Virus record (IMG/VR): IMGVR_UViG_2671180608_000010
Length of the DNA stretch: 8,128 bases
Reading direction: 5' to 3' (one strand)
DNA from: a virus
Lineage: Duplodnaviria; Heunggongvirae; Uroviricota; Caudoviricetes
In this document: one piece after another, positions 938 through 7,298 of the stretch
Layout of the letters: each line of letters starts with the position of its first letter
Position numbering within the stretch: the first letter of the stretch is position 1
Made by a program: the position numbers and the translations under genes
The notes under the pieces: model-generated
What the model saw: only the letters and a program-made list of their open reading frames with translations
What the model was told of the DNA's origin: nothing
The model's database searches: none

Positions 938-1014
938 TGGCGCGTTGTACTGGATTCGAACCAGTGACCGATTGCTTAGAAGGCAATTGCTCTGTCCGGC
1001 TGAGCTAACAACGC
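938..1014 (-). tRNA. tRNA-Arg, anticodon UCU (reads AGA/AGG), 77 nt with encoded CCA
   Basis: Cloverleaf folded by hand from the reverse complement: acceptor GCGTTGT/ACAACGC, D-stem GCTC/GAGC, anticodon stem ATTGC/GCAAT with loop CTTCTAA, T-arm ACTGG-TTCGAAT-CCAGT, discriminator G, CCA. Confidence 0.85.
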
Positions 1015-1027
1015 ATGATGCAGATAA

Positions 1028-1104
1028 TGGACCGCCATCGGGGACTTGAACCCCGCGCAGCCAGCTTCGAAGGCTGGCGCTCTTTCCTGATGAGCTAATG
1101 GCGG
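1028..1104 (-). tRNA. tRNA-Arg, anticodon UCG (reads CGA), 77 nt with encoded CCA
   Basis: Hand-folded: acceptor CCGCCAT/ATGGCGG (unusual C1-G72), D-stem GCTC/GAGC, anticodon stem CCAGC/GCTGG with loop CTTCGAA, T-arm CGGGG-TTCAAGT-CCCCG, CCA. Confidence 0.8.
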
Positions 1105-1227
1105 TATGTGATGGTGGCCCTTGCTGGATTTGAACCAGCGACCTGGCGATTATGAGTCGCTCGCTCTCACCACTGAGCTAAAGGGCCGGGAGCCGCATAA
1201 TAACGACGCGTAATTAATTCTTCAATA
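1096..1227 (-). repeat. Direct repeat copy 1 (Arg-UCG 5' end, spacer, tRNA-Ile2, about 35 nt of upstream flank); second copy at 2833..2958
   Basis: Read directly: 1096-1193 matches 2833-2930 except one spacer SNP (tatgtga versus tttgtga). Flanks then diverge gradually. Confidence 0.85.
1112..1187 (-). tRNA. ileZ: tRNA with CAU anticodon, closest by memory to E. coli tRNA-Ile2 (ileX/ileZ type, reads AUA) rather than elongator Met
   Basis: Hand-folded: acceptor GGCCCTT/AAGGGCC, D-arm TAGCTCAGTGGTGAGAGC, anticodon loop CTCATAA, T-arm GCTGG-TTCAAAT-CCAGC, CCA. Ile2 versus Met cannot be settled without a classifier. The ileZ symbol is by analogy to the Stx-phage ileZ-argN-argO cluster. Confidence 0.8.
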
Positions 1228-2103: not shown

Positions 2104-2832
2104 NNNNNNNNNNNNNNNNNNNNNNNNNNNNNNNNNNNNNNNNNNNNNNNNNNNNNNNNNNNNNNNNNNNNNNNNNNNNNNNNNNNNNNNNNNNNNNNNN
2201 NNNNNNNNNNNNNNNNNNNNNNNNNNNNNNNNNNNNNNNNNNNNNNNNNNNNNNNNNNNNNNNNNNNNNNNNNNNNNNNNNNNNNNNNNNNNNNNNNNNN
2301 NNNNNNNNNNNNNNNNNNNNNNNNNNNNNNNNNNNNNNNNNNNNNNNNNNNNNNNNNNNNNNNNNNNNNNNNNNNNNNNNNNNNNNNNNNNNNNNNNNNN
2401 NNNNNNNNNNNNNNNNNNNNNNNNNNNNNNNNNNNNNNNNNNNNNNNNNNNNNNNNNNNNNNNNNNNNNNNNNNNNNNNNNNNNNNNNNNNNNNNNNNNN
2501 NNNNNNNNNNNNNNNNNNNNNNNNNNNNNNNNNNNNNNNNNNNNNNNNNNNNNNNNNNNNNNNNNNNNNNNNNNNNNNNNNNNNNNNNNNNNNNNNNNNN
2601 NNNNNNNNNNNNNTTTAGCATGTCTTTTCCTTTTCCGGTTAACGTGACACACCAATAACTCTTGTCGAAAAAGCCAGCAAGCTGAAANNNNNNNNNNNNN
2701 NNNNNNNNNNNNNNNNNNNNNNNNNNNNNNNNNNNNNNNNNNNNNNNNNNNNNNNNNNNNNNNNNNNNNNNNNNNNNNNNNNNNNNNNNNNNNNNNNNNN
2801 NNNNNNNNNNNNNNNNNNNNNNNNNNNNNNNN

Positions 2833-2958
2833 TAATGGCGGTTTGTGATGGTGGCCCTTGCTGGATTTGAACCAGCGACCTGGCGATTATGAGTCGCTCG
2901 CTCTCACCACTGAGCTAAAGGGCCGGGAGCAGAATAATAACGGTCCGTAATTAATTCC
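2833..2958 (-). repeat. Direct repeat copy 2 of the tRNA-containing segment; the rest of the Arg-UCG tRNA lies in the 2688-2832 N-run
   Basis: taatggcggt at 2833-2842 is the 5' portion of the Arg-UCG tRNA as at 1096-1105. Similarity to copy 1 fades after about 2958. Confidence 0.8.
2849..2924 (-). tRNA. ileZ: Second copy of the CAU-anticodon tRNA (Ile2-like), identical to 1112..1187
   Basis: 76-nt sequence identical to copy 1, read directly. Sits 37 nt downstream of the candidate tR' hairpin. Confidence 0.8.
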
Positions 2959-3067: not shown

Positions 3068-3889
3068 TTACCTAGTTACCTTTTTTAACTGCCGCTCAGC
3101 CCATGCTTCTTCAATATCAAACCGGGTCACCAGCGCATCATAAAATTTCTTAACTGTTTTTTCCCATGACGCGCGTGTTATCTGGTTTGTCACCTCGCAT
3201 ATAGCATTAAATGCCTCCGTTGATGGTAGTCTTTCATAGCCACGACCACCACAACGCTGGCAGTCTCTGATAACAGGCATACCACGTTTTACCGACTCTT
3301 CACGATGAATGGCGACACCACGCCCACGGCAATCCTTACAGGCGGTGGAAACCTCACCCTTTCCGCCACACTCCGGACAGGCAACTTTTACCACCTCCCT
3401 GACTTTTTTCCATTCTTCCCAGTAAGACGGATACACACCTTTCGTACACTTTGCCCATACCGGCGGCTTACCATCCGGATACTGGACCTTGTTTGTAAAA
3501 ACTACGCTTTCAATAAATTTTTCCCCATAGCAACAAGGGCACTGCTTTTTACTCGCTGCGCTGCGGGCATAATCCTCAAAAGCGTACGAAGCCATAATGC
3601 GCATCACTACCGGTTTTATTTCTGCCGGAAGTTTTCTCAACGCCGCCACACGATCGCACCGACTGAGTGCATAATCTGCCAGTAATTCTGTTGCCCGCGC
3701 CCTGTCATTCATACTGATGCCCATTTTCCCCAGGAACGCAGAAAACCCCATCTCAGCCCGATTCTGTGTCATGCCCTGCGCGGCCATCACATCAGTGATA
3801 CTCAGCGCATCTTTTGACGTTGAGGCCGATGCATCGGTCAGGCAAGGGGATTTTGGGGAGTAGTATTTCGGTAAATCTTCCAGTTTCAT
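3068..3889 (-). CDS. Q: Late-gene antitermination protein Q (lambda Q family, long variant with Cys-rich zinc-binding region)
   Basis: 273-aa ORF. N-terminus (MKLEDLPKYYSPKSP...TDVMAAQGM) and C-terminus (YDALV) align by memory with lambda Q; several CxxC pairs. Start ATG overlaps the upstream rusA-type stop (ATGA). Confidence 0.85.
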   Translation of the reverse strand: MKLEDLPKYYSPKSPCLTDASASTSKDALSITDVMAAQGMTQNRAEMGFSAFLGKMGISMNDRARATELLADYALSRCDRVAALRKLPAEIKPVVMRIMASYAFEDYARSAASKKQCPCCYGEKFIESVVFTNKVQYPDGKPPVWAKCTKGVYPSYWEEWKKVREVVKVACPECGGKGEVSTACKDCRGRGVAIHREESVKRGMPVIRDCQRCGGRGYERLPSTEAFNAICEVTNQITRASWEKTVKKFYDALVTRFDIEEAWAERQLKKVTR

Positions 3890-3918
3890 TTTTTGACCTG
3901 CTCTTCATGCATTATGGG
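3838..3918 (-). repeat. Duplicated rusA-3'/Q-5' junction, copy A (partner at 4864..4947)
   Basis: About 80 nt near-identical between the two positions (ttttggggagtagtatttcggtaaatcttccagtttcattttttgacctgc...). Copy A runs into the N-run at 3919. Confidence 0.8.
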
Positions 3919-4412
3919 NNNNNNNNNNNNNNNNNNNNNNNNNNNNNNNNNNNNNNNNNNNNNNNNNNNNNNNNNNNNNNNNNNNNNNNNNNNNNNNNNN
4001 NNNNNNNNNCCACGCGATCACACNNNNNNNNNNNNNNNNNNNNNNNNNNNNNNNNNNNNNNNNNNNNNNNNNNNNNNNNNNNNNNNNNNNNNNNNNNNNN
4101 NNNNNNNNNNNNNNNNNNNNNNNNNNNNNNNNNNNNNNNNNNNNNNNNNNNNNNNNNNNNNNNNNNNNNNNNNNNNNNNNNNNNNNNNNNNNNNNNNNNN
4201 NNNNNNNNNNNNNNNNNNNNNNNNNNNNNNNNNNNNNNNNNNNNNNNNNNNNNNCTTCCGGACAGGCTTAATTTCAGTCGCTGCTGACGGACAATAAGCG
4301 CCACATCCCGGCGATAACGCTCACCGGCTTTTGATACAAAATATGTGTTGTCACGACGTCGCCAGTAAGTATTCACCGTCGGCGGATAAGGTAAAATAAA
4401 CTCATGGCGCAT
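3886..4412 (-). CDS. Second RusA-like resolvase gene, integrity uncertain (interior masked; N- and C-terminal frames disagree if N-run lengths are true)
   Basis: Visible N-terminus MRHEFILPYPPTVNTYWRRRDNTYFVSKAGERYRRDVALIVRQQRLKLSLSG (4412-4255) is about 90% identical to rusA at 4915..5295. Visible 3' end ...PIMHEEQVKK-TGA at 3886 is in a different frame, and the span is 146 nt longer than rusA copy 1. Confidence 0.45.
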
Positions 4413-4669
4413 CAGCGCAGCACCTCCTGCACCAGTTTTTCAAACTTTCCGACTCTGGTTTCCAGCTCTGCCACACAGTCCACCAGCTCATCTACTGCTT
4501 TCTGTGCGCGATGCTTCGCCTGCATCAGTTCCCGAAGCGCGGGTACCATATCTTTACGGATAGCGTCTTTTGTTATGCCCGTTTTTTCGAGTTGTTCAGC
4601 ATGACGCAGCATTTCCTGCGCGTGTTTACGCAATTGTTCAGGGGTAAAAGTCATTGTCTGGTTGTTCAA
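4412..4669 (-). CDS. Hypothetical 85-aa (80 aa from the ATG at 4654) helical protein, translationally coupled to the downstream RusA-like gene
   Basis: Stop TGA overlaps the rusA-like ATG (TGATG). TTG start at 4669 has GGAG 8 nt upstream. Charged coiled-coil-like composition; no family recognised. Confidence 0.55.
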   Translation of the reverse strand: MNNQTMTFTPEQLRKHAQEMLRHAEQLEKTGITKDAIRKDMVPALRELMQAKHRAQKAVDELVDCVAELETRVGKFEKLVQEVLR

Positions 4670-4821
4670 AAGAAACGCTCCATCTTACTGCTGTCAGTTC
4701 GTTTATTACTGTATCTGCGCGGATTGCCGGGCTTCATGGGAGTGGAAAGCACCCGTGCACTTTCCTGGTCCACAGGCAGAAAATGTCCGTAGACTGGCCC
4801 CCTGAATCTCCAGACAACCAG

Positions 4822-4841
4822 TATCACTTAAATAAGTGATA
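4822..4841. repeat. Perfect 8-bp inverted repeat with 4-bp spacer, TATCACTT-AAAT-AAGTGATA; candidate protein-binding site
   Basis: Read directly. TATCAC matches lambda operator half-site consensus. Lies in a non-coding stretch beside the 11-nt N-run. Confidence 0.5.
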
Positions 4842-4863
4842 GTCTTAATACTNNNNNNNNNNN

Positions 4864-4918
4864 CAGTCAGGCCGGGGGATTTTGGGGAGTAGTATTTCGG
4901 TAAATCTTCCAGTTTCAT
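4864..4918 (-). pseudogene. 5' fragment of a Q gene (first 18 codons MKLEDLPKYYSPKSPGLT), then masked and divergent; recombination scar
   Basis: DNA near-identical to the start of Q at 3889-3838. After the N-run the reading frame gives unrelated sequence and stops at 4706. Confidence 0.6.
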
Positions 4919-4947
4919 TTTTTGACCTGCCCTTCAAGCATTATGGG
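4864..4947 (-). repeat. Duplicated rusA-3'/Q-5' junction, copy B
   Basis: Near-identical to 3838-3918, read directly. Confidence 0.8.
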
Positions 4948-5295
4948 ATAAATCTTCACCCCCAGACGTCCACCAGATACTGGCTGAGCACGAACGATAT
5001 TGATTTCATCAAACTGCTCATCGTCCATTAGCAACCCCGCATGCGTCAGCGCATCCAGCGGCGCTTTCAGAATATTGTCCAGGTCACGGCGGCGCTTATC
5101 CGGTGGTTCTGCAATAATTTTTATTGCCAACCTTCCGGACAGGCTTAATTTCAGCCGCTGCTGGCGAACAATAAGCGCCACTGCCCGGCGATAACGCTCC
5201 CCGGCTTTTGATACAAAATATGTGCTGCCACGACGACGCCAGTAAGTGTTCACCGTCGGCGGGTAAGGTAAAACAAATTCTATGCGCTCGGTCAT
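4915..5295 (-). CDS. rusA: Crossover junction endodeoxyribonuclease RusA (Holliday junction resolvase), 126 aa
   Basis: Aligns by memory with E. coli RusA: LPYPPTVNTYWRRR..., PDKRRRDLDNILKA..DALT.AG...DDEQ, GGRL. Start abuts the DUF968 stop (TAAATG). Confidence 0.9.
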   Translation of the reverse strand: MTERIEFVLPYPPTVNTYWRRRGSTYFVSKAGERYRRAVALIVRQQRLKLSLSGRLAIKIIAEPPDKRRRDLDNILKAPLDALTHAGLLMDDEQFDEINIVRAQPVSGGRLGVKIYPIMLEGQVKK

Positions 5296-6354
5296 TTATG
5301 CTTTCCACTTCAGAACACCCGAATTTCTCGCGTGCATTAAAAAACGAATCAGCAACAACAGCTGACTGCCGTGTTTCTCTTCAAAATCTTTTACTCCGGC
5401 ATGTAGTTCGTTACGGCATTTACGGCATAACGGAATAACAAACAAATCATCAGCCTTTGTTCCCATCCCTCCCAGTCCATGACCAATGATGTGATGCGGA
5501 TCATCTGCCTGATTGCCACACGTCATGCATTTCTGCGTTTTTACCCAGCGCGTGTATACAGGCATCTCTTCCCGTTGTGATTTCTGGCGCTGGAGATACT
5601 GAGCCGGTGACTCCGGATCAACGGCAATGCTGACCACCGTCTTTTCCTGTGGTGGGTTCTGTTGCTGGTGGACGTGAGGCAGTAACGCAATATTTTTTGT
5701 GCGCTGCTTCAGTATGCTGGTGGCTGTCTGCTCTCCCGGTATGATGTCGCTTTCACTGTACACAGAGCGAATTTTTTCCGCACGCAACCCCAGCGAACGA
5801 CGTAATACCGCTTCCGGTAGCGCGTCCGCCACCTGATTGCGGACCGCCCACCAGGATAATTCAGCCAGAGATAATTCACGCTCCTGCGTACCGCTTATTG
5901 CGTGACCGATGACGTCAATCATCCATGCTGACAGGTTTTGATGAGCAAGTTGCTCGAGTGATTCGGATGTCTGGTCACGCAGCTGGTTGTCGCAGTGCCA
6001 GCACAACACCATTGCGCCGGTACCATAACGGTGAATGACGGTTTCGCTGTGATGATAATCGCCGTGTGGCCACTGGCAGGATTTAATATGGCGCAACAGC
6101 CAGTCAGACAATGCACCAGCACCACCAGCAGCACGAATCACCCGTGCGTTACTGAAAAACGGCAGCAATGTTTTGTCTTCCACCAGCGGCTGGCGAGCGG
6201 CAGGAACGACCCCGGACGGCAGATTACGCATGCTTTTTGGTTCCGGCTCCACCAGTATTCTGCCGTTATGGAATGCTGACATTGATTCACGGCCTGGCTT
6301 AACGATAACCAGACCGAGTTCCGGTACCAGAACAGGTCGAAGTAATACCCGCAC
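5296..6354 (-). CDS. DUF968-family prophage protein with C-terminal HNH-like Cys/His motif (YdfU-like), 352 aa from a GTG start
   Basis: C-terminal CMTCGNQADDPHHIIGHGLGGMGTKADDLFVIPLCRKCRNELH matches the DUF968 signature. GGAGG lies 4 nt upstream of the GTG; true start could be the ATG 24 codons in. Confidence 0.8.
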   Translation of the reverse strand: MRVLLRPVLVPELGLVIVKPGRESMSAFHNGRILVEPEPKSMRNLPSGVVPAARQPLVEDKTLLPFFSNARVIRAAGGAGALSDWLLRHIKSCQWPHGDYHHSETVIHRYGTGAMVLCWHCDNQLRDQTSESLEQLAHQNLSAWMIDVIGHAISGTQERELSLAELSWWAVRNQVADALPEAVLRRSLGLRAEKIRSVYSESDIIPGEQTATSILKQRTKNIALLPHVHQQQNPPQEKTVVSIAVDPESPAQYLQRQKSQREEMPVYTRWVKTQKCMTCGNQADDPHHIIGHGLGGMGTKADDLFVIPLCRKCRNELHAGVKDFEEKHGSQLLLLIRFLMHARNSGVLKWKA

Positions 6355-6931: not shown

Positions 6932-7087
6932 TTACTCCTCAGGTTCGTAAGCTGTGAAGACAGCGACCTCCGTCTGGCCGGTTCGAATTCGTACCTCGCA
7001 GAGGTCTTTCCTCGTTACCAGTGCCGTCACAATGACGGTTAAACAGATGACGATCAGGGCGATTAACATCGCCTTTTGCTGCTTCAT
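6932..7087 (-). CDS. hokD: Hok/Gef-family membrane toxin, 51 aa (HokD/RelF-like)
   Basis: MKQQKAMLIALIVICLTVIVTALVTRKDLCEVRIRTGQTEVAVFTAYEPEE matches the Hok family from memory. AAGGAG 9 nt upstream. The 70-aa track ORF is an in-frame upstream ATG extension. Confidence 0.85.
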   Translation of the reverse strand: MKQQKAMLIALIVICLTVIVTALVTRKDLCEVRIRTGQTEVAVFTAYEPEE

Positions 7088-7298
7088 AGCCTGCTTCTCC
7101 TTGCCTTTCGGCACGTAAGAGGCTAACCTAGATTTGCCGTTCATAGATTGAGCCTCAGATTAATGTTAAGCGTCTTGCCGGACGCGTAATGTTAACTGGG
7201 GCTTTTCTCTATCTGCCTTTTGGTGTTCATGCCTGAGACAGATAGCCTCAAGCACCCGCTGCAATTCTACTTAACTCTCCTTTTCCCGCAAACCGTTT

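Follow-up and report, generated by a model that had tools for sequence, protein, structure and literature searches.

Operators of phage λ are 17 bp long, with 5 bp between the hexamers TATCAC and GTGATA, and three of them lie in tandem between cI and cro. Among insertion sequences (IS), InsA of IS1 acts on the terminal repeats of its own element, a parallel case of autorepression. In IS30, the parallel is an N-terminal fragment overlapping the promoter (PMC3299598). These cases resemble IS2, a member of the IS2 subgroup of the IS3 family, in that a small helix-turn-helix (HTH) protein with the DNA-binding domain of the transposase represses the transposase promoter at the end of the element; IS1 and IS30 differ from IS2 in belonging to other IS families, with other sequences. 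OrfA of IS911, a closer relative of IS2, is without this repressor role (PMC3299598).

In IS2 itself, the 14-kDa OrfA (InsA) docks just upstream of a weak extended -10 promoter, P_IRL, which is located just inside the left terminal inverted repeat, IRL (PMC3299598). The docking site of this repressor is given as 5'-TAAATAA-3', within IS2 residues 39-48, and OrfAB gives strong protection at residues 39-42 (T, T, A, A) as well as at 43-48 (A, T, A, A, G, T), while the TGAT of bp 48-51 forms the start of the extended -10 (PMC3299598). The repressor role of OrfA at P_IRL is attributed to Hu et al. 1994, as cited in PMC3299598, and the autoregulation of the IS2 transposase at this promoter has been known since the 1990s. 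OrfA and OrfAB share their N-terminal HTH, and a coiled-coil, leucine-zipper-like dimerisation region is described at residues 73-100 (PMC3219604); Lei & Hu, as cited in the same paper, place the dimerisation of OrfA in residues 58-105. The first six bases of IRL, TAGACT, serve as the -10 of Pjunc, the promoter of the minicircle junction (PMC3299598, PMC3219604).

In this study, we analyzed a 20-mer of a viral DNA record (IMGVR_UViG_2671180608_000010), present in a stretch of 8,128 nt hereafter named “the window”. A sequence-only reading had presented it as a perfect palindrome with λ-operator-like half-sites, lying in a non-coding gap. We find instead that it is very probably the operator/promoter region at the inner edge of the IRL of IS2, in a copy inserted into a DnaB-type helicase gene of the prophage. 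The features concerned are the following.

4666-4789, minus strand: 3' remnant of the DnaB-type replicative helicase gene, last 41 codons and stop (translation GHFLPVDQESARVLSTPMKPGNPRRYSNKRTDSSKMERFF, then the stop).
4790-4852, plus strand: left-end fragment of IS2 (IS3 family), nt 1-63, identical at 63/63 positions to the IS2 of locus L002; the contig ends here.
4790-4831, plus strand: IRL, the 42-bp left terminal inverted repeat of IS2 (length and roles from PMC3299598 and PMC3219604).
4822-4841, no strand: the palindrome TATCACTTAAATAAGTGATA, that is TATCACTTA-AA-TAAGTGATA, IS2 nt 33-52.
4828-4837, plus strand: OrfAB-protected IS2 residues 39-48, TTAAATAAGT (PMC3299598, legends of Figures 1 and 6, and text).
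4837-4845, plus strand: extended -10 of the weak promoter P_IRL, TG-a-TAGTCT, directed rightward into orfA (PMC3299598).
4853-4863, no strand: assembly gap of 11 Ns, in place of IS2 nt 64-1331 and whatever follows.
4864-4918, minus strand: second antiterminator Q gene, first 18 codons, cut by the gap (translation MKLEDLPKYYSPKSPGLT).
4915-5295, minus strand: RusA, upstream of the Q stub on that strand.
5296-6354, minus strand: DUF968, also upstream of the Q stub on that strand.

Since 4790-4852 corresponds to IS2 nt 1-63, a position in IS2 is the window position minus 4789.

The reverse complement of TATCACTTAAATAAGTGATA is TATCACTTATTTAAGTGATA, which differs from it at the two central bases, so that the symmetry holds for 18/20 positions and the palindrome is not a perfect one. 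A repeat finder describes it as a 9+2+9 inverted repeat, whose arms of 9 bp (4822-4830 and 4833-4841) match perfectly and enclose a centre, AA, that is not symmetric. The 20-mer is present in a single copy within the window. Inverted repeats with arms of at least 9 bp and a spacer of at most 4 nt number 2 in the window, where 0.17 are expected, and 12% of block-shuffled windows contain at least one such repeat; taken simply as an inverted repeat, the 20-mer is only mildly unusual. Its significance comes from its conservation, since the 68 nt around it recur at 19,653 places in E. coli genomes. As for its location, the supposed non-coding gap is occupied by the 3' end of the helicase gene on the minus strand up to 4789, by IS2 from 4790 to 4852, and by the Ns from 4853 to 4863. 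The 11-nt N-run and the Q stub (4864-4918, minus strand) do adjoin the site as described, and the suggestion that the palindrome marks a mosaic junction proved right, as it is part of a transposon end. It had also been placed about 150 bp upstream of an 85-aa gene: the distance is correct, but the interval consists of the helicase remnant and the IS2 end and is not a promoter region.

Several lines identify the 63 nt as IS2. All are identical to the known IS2 left end, they lie at the same distance from the tip, and they carry the features described in PMC3299598 and PMC3219604. The IRL starts with TAGACTGGCCCC, the terminal sequence of the IS2 left end. Its sequence is present in oligonucleotides quoted in PMC3219604, bar one A/G polymorphism at nt 32, where the window copy has G and the laboratory IS2 of PMC3299598 and PMC3219604 has A. 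The complete IS2 of L002 measures 1,331 bp, beginning with TAGACTGGCCCC and ending with GGGGCAAATCCA, and has the 5-bp target duplication ATCCG on either side. In a full IS2, the left end is succeeded by orfA and orfB, which specify HTH_Tnp_1 plus a DDE integrase obtained through programmed -1 frameshifting.

We then quantified how often this sequence recurs. A megablast query covering 4300-5400 matched E. coli genomes at 26,817 places (3,505 on plasmids), which is the signature of a mobile repeat. With a 68-nt query restricted to 4786-4853, 19,653 places were found in 4,589 of the 5,426 complete E. coli genomes (3,499 on plasmids), nearly all of them full-length and with 95-100% identity, at a median of 3 per genome and up to 41. 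Two unrelated sites with a 100% match were inspected (L002 and L003), one within hyxB and the other within fimF; in both, the match stops 29 nt before a CDS annotated [quoted passage not shown]. The genes flanking matches to the IS2 end vary from site to site (hyxB, fimF, restriction-enzyme genes), as they do for a multicopy mobile element. In viral and prophage contigs, 121/121 exact matches to the 20-mer, with either orientation of the centre, were in an IS2 context, among the matches listed, which came from 120 contigs. We also observed contigs of about 0.5-1.5 kb, essentially made of IS2 alone (L163, L166, L171 and L189; 94-99% OrfA identity), in assemblies of Streptosporangium, Paenisporosarcina, Lamprocystis and Brevibacterium; contamination with E. 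coli DNA is their most likely source, rather than genuine IS2 of these taxa.

The window copy differs from a typical IS2 in being cut off by an assembly gap and in its site, a prophage helicase gene. No IS2 right end (IRR, ending in GGGGCAAATCCA) was found in the window at up to 2 mismatches, the sole matches being tRNA-like sequences, and with only 63 nt of IS2 included, the window has no orfA, IRR or target duplication. The absence of the last two is expected if the gap hides the right end. That the element is intact here is inferred from sister assemblies, since the window holds only these 63 nt. Six other draft prophage contigs share the helicase-IS2 junction, and three of them end 33-64 nt into IS2, like the window contig. 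One contig, L115, has the identical junction, continues through IS2 nt 1-821 at 99.5% identity, has a gap of its own, and is then followed by the same Q-rusA-DUF968 contig. Because L115 continues into IS2, the 11 Ns of the window stand for the rest of IS2 and the right junction. The exact helicase-IS2 junction is absent from GTDB species representatives, and none of the complete E. coli genomes covers at least 80% of the junction query. Neither L115 nor L087 spans the right junction, both breaking inside or just after IS2. In L087 (oriented, 8767-8954), the sequence follows IS2 to nt 159, and diverges before a single-N gap; this contig is possibly chimeric, or possibly holds a rearranged IS2 copy.

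The N-run next to the palindrome is an assembly break caused by a multicopy IS. It is one of five N-runs in the window (2104-2613, 510 nt; 2688-2832, 145 nt; 3919-4009, 91 nt; 4024-4254, 231 nt; 4853-4863, 11 nt), which is therefore a draft scaffold. Two paralogous lambdoid nin-region modules lie side by side on its minus strand, at 3068-4669 (helicase remnant, 85-aa ORF, rusA and a 273-aa Q) and at 4864-6354 (DUF968, rusA and the Q stub); across the IS2 gap, their rusA-Q units are only putatively adjacent. The 5' regions of their Q genes are about 95% identical, and this near-identity probably caused contig breaks. Complete genomes have an intact antitermination gene at the place of the Q stub. 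An immunity-region setting was considered for the palindrome and rejected, as its neighbours (helicase remnant, rusA, Q and DUF968) are those of a nin/late-regulation region.

Elsewhere in the window, a 166-aa “ORF” (3912-4412, minus strand) is an artefact of reading through Ns, of which only the first 52 codons or so (4255-4412) are real sequence; this real part matches RusA weakly (E = 0.0013, 19.8 bits, below the Pfam cut-off of 22.8). Downstream of Q are a tRNA cluster (938-1187, minus strand), comprising a tRNA with a CAT anticodon, Arg-TCG and Arg-TCT, and a further tRNA with a CAT anticodon (2849-2924, minus strand). As the equivalent gene of L001 is annotated tRNA-Ile, the tRNAs with CAT anticodons probably belong to the lysidine-type Ile tRNAs known from Stx-type lambdoid phages. 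A 70-aa ORF (6932-7144, minus strand) matches the Hok/Gef toxin family (Pfam PF01848, E=3e-23).

On the left side of IS2, the translation of the helicase remnant equals the C-terminus of the helicase in L001, a prophage of E. coli FDAARGOS_944. The intact L001 DNA runs on with aaaatgtccgTTATAAAAACG beyond the position at which IS2 begins in the window, and matches to intact prophages are 100% identical over 151 nt and end at the helicase-IS2 junction. The 85-aa ORF (4412-4669, minus strand) overlaps the end of the helicase gene by 4 nt in the undisrupted prophage, and is followed by rusA and Q; it is without a promoter region of its own.

Mapped on the window, IS2 residues 39-48 (4828-4837) and the TGAT (4837-4840) both fall within the palindrome, and the -10 hexamer TAGTCT is at 4840-4845. 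A scan of the IS2 left end with a two-hexamer sigma-70 consensus gave no site, as expected of an extended -10 promoter without a -35, and this result is not evidence against P_IRL. IS2 OrfA matches the Pfam family HTH_Tnp_1 (E=1.8e-19). When IRL is aligned with IRR in reverse complement, two common blocks emerge, CCAGACA and TATCACTTAA. The left arm of the palindrome, TATCACTTAA, thus forms the inner end of IRL, inside the 42-bp repeat, and recurs at the inner end of IRR; the right arm, an inverted copy, lies just inside IS2, outside IRL, and has no counterpart inside IRR.

These positions suggest how the site might work. The recognition motif of the shared N-terminal HTH would be TATCACTTA, found once at the inner end of each terminal repeat, with a second, inverted copy just inside IRL. 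An OrfA dimer would sit on both inverted copies of TATCACTTA, covering the TG as well as the first bases of the -10 hexamer, and such occlusion of P_IRL would keep transposase synthesis low, as autorepression of orfA and orfAB. Such occupancy of the whole dyad by OrfA has comparative support, from the conserved dyad and the compensatory changes described below; the published binding site is limited to TAAATAA and residues 39-48 (PMC3299598), that is, to the less conserved centre of the dyad. We propose only tentatively that the recognition unit of OrfA and of the transposase is the whole symmetric 20-mer, with its two inverted copies of TATCACTTA, rather than TAAATAA, and that its centre undergoes a recurrent AA/TT flip.

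The palindrome could alternatively be, in the main, a part of the domain of IRL bound by OrfAB for assembly of the synaptic complex, repression of the promoter being a by-product. We consider this doubtful as a main role, even though the left arm is inside IRL and common to IRR, the OrfAB footprint covers residues 39-48 (PMC3299598), and the N-terminal HTH is the same in OrfA and OrfAB. The right arm, being outside the 42-bp IRL and without an IRR counterpart, is not needed for end recognition; it overlaps the extended -10 precisely, and a repressor function of OrfA has been reported at this very site (PMC3299598). Binding by OrfAB and a role as operator are in any case compatible with each other.

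We next compared the site among relatives of IS2, using 14 distinct IS2-like left ends from at least 10 genera (Escherichia, Enterobacter, Klebsiella, Citrobacter, Pantoea, Erwinia, Rahnella, Providencia, Aeromonas and others), with OrfA identities of 81% to 99%. The arm cores TCACT/AGTGA are conserved in these 14 left ends, and the centre varies (AAAT, ATTT, AAGT, AATT, or one base shorter). Among the five pairs of the cores, three are invariant, one varies only to G-T, in a single element (Rahnella, L202), and the remaining one has both of its bases changed in the Aeromonas element, and only one of them in one Rahnella element. Complementarity is kept in 89.7% of pair cells, against 23-50% for slid registers. 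The Rahnella and Aeromonas elements depart by 1 nt in the distance that separates the two arms. Where IS2 has the palindrome, the Aeromonas IS2-like element (L204:1710-1772, and L205) reads CCTCTTAA-C-TTAAGAGG, with two compensatory changes in the arms. The inner motif of its IRR is also altered, to CCCGCTTAG, and in its OrfA several residues of the HTH segment (34-48) are substituted. Taken together, these changes in arms, IRR and HTH look like co-evolution of a protein with its site. Both compensatory changes come from a single lineage, and count as one evolutionary event.

Two forms of the 20-mer occur naturally among loci L004-L125 and L126-L188, TATCACTTA-AA-TAAGTGATA and its counterpart with a TT centre, which differ at the bases corresponding to 4831-4832 and are exact reverse complements of each other. 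Among IS2 copies located through OrfA, 35 have the TT and 26 the AA centre, and none was seen with AT or TA. Both forms coexist in a single genome in S. flexneri SFBU1023 and in E. coli ECMA0423, in elements that differ at about 10/1331 nt, which suggests recurrent inversion of the spacer. The natural occurrence of the two forms fits a two-fold symmetric recognition, which would tolerate either centre. With the TT centre, the published docking site TAAATAA becomes TATTTAA in many IS2 copies. The flip might slightly tune the strength of P_IRL or its occupancy by OrfA. No statement on AA and TT forms of the 20-mer was found in the IS2 literature examined, and a full-text literature search with the sequence string gave no match.

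A purely structural role, as a hairpin or cruciform acting without protein recognition, either in read-through or Pjunc transcripts or as a recombination hotspot, is very unlikely. The single strand does fold into an 8-bp stem with a 4-nt loop (-5.6 kcal/mol, z = -3.7), the G-T variant of Rahnella L202 is of the wobble type, and the AA/TT flip could arise by hairpin-mediated template switching. However, the stem is weak and AT-rich. Judging from the promoter position in PMC3299598, it would precede the expected start of P_IRL transcription and not be part of the main transcript, and, at about 30 nt upstream of the GGAG ribosome-binding site, it does not sequester that site. The concomitant change in the Aeromonas IRR motif fits a motif recognized by a protein, and not intramolecular pairing. 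A hairpin or terminator as the main function was rejected on account of this weak fold and bad placement.

Still less credible is a λ-type operator through which a CI/Cro-like repressor of the prophage would govern the 85-aa gene together with those downstream, the regulatory role initially proposed for the palindrome. The hexamers TATCAC and GTGATA do match the ends of the λ operator consensus, the surrounding DNA is that of a lambdoid prophage, and approximate two-fold symmetry and binding of a dimeric HTH protein are shared with OR and OL. But the IS2 site is 20 bp long, with 8 bp instead of 5 between the hexamers, and it is single and located in a transposon end, so it is not a member of this class. 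At that spacing, the half-sites would be about 100 degrees out of phase for a λ-type dimer, and the resemblance is thus coincidental. A search for TATCAC-N5-GTGATA with up to 3 mismatches gave 3 occurrences in the window, against 2.3 expected, none of them at the palindrome: matches with λ spacing are at chance level. There is neither a tandem set of sites nor an adjoining repressor gene, and in the undisrupted prophage no such site precedes the 85-aa gene, which there overlaps the helicase gene end. The palindrome belongs to IS2, which occurs on plasmids and in thousands of places outside prophages; the genome-wide search for further copies suggested by the sequence-only reading returned thousands, every one examined being inside IS2. 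Since P_IRL fires on the plus strand into IS2 and the 85-aa gene lies to the left on the minus strand, the site cannot be the operator of that gene, and the idea of a regulator controlling the downstream unit fails on the same ground. The regulated unit is IS2 itself. The kind of protein had been correctly anticipated, a dimeric HTH regulator, here IS2 OrfA/InsA (HTH_Tnp_1), which dimerises, and not CI or Cro of the prophage.

A chance palindrome without function, for which the frequency of similar repeats in shuffled windows could be invoked, can be dismissed in view of its base-for-base conservation in thousands of IS2 copies, of the symmetry kept in relatives down to 81% OrfA identity, and of the published footprints on it (PMC3299598).

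To return to the operator/promoter region of IS2, its presence here accounts for what had made this locus look peculiar: the apparent gene-free gap, the Q stub and the N-run are consequences of an IS2 insertion and of short-read assembly. The annotation is to be corrected accordingly, as the seeming phage operator belongs to the end of a multicopy insertion sequence, where the contig breaks. For the prophage itself, the replication helicase is disrupted at this point, and it is probably replication-defective.
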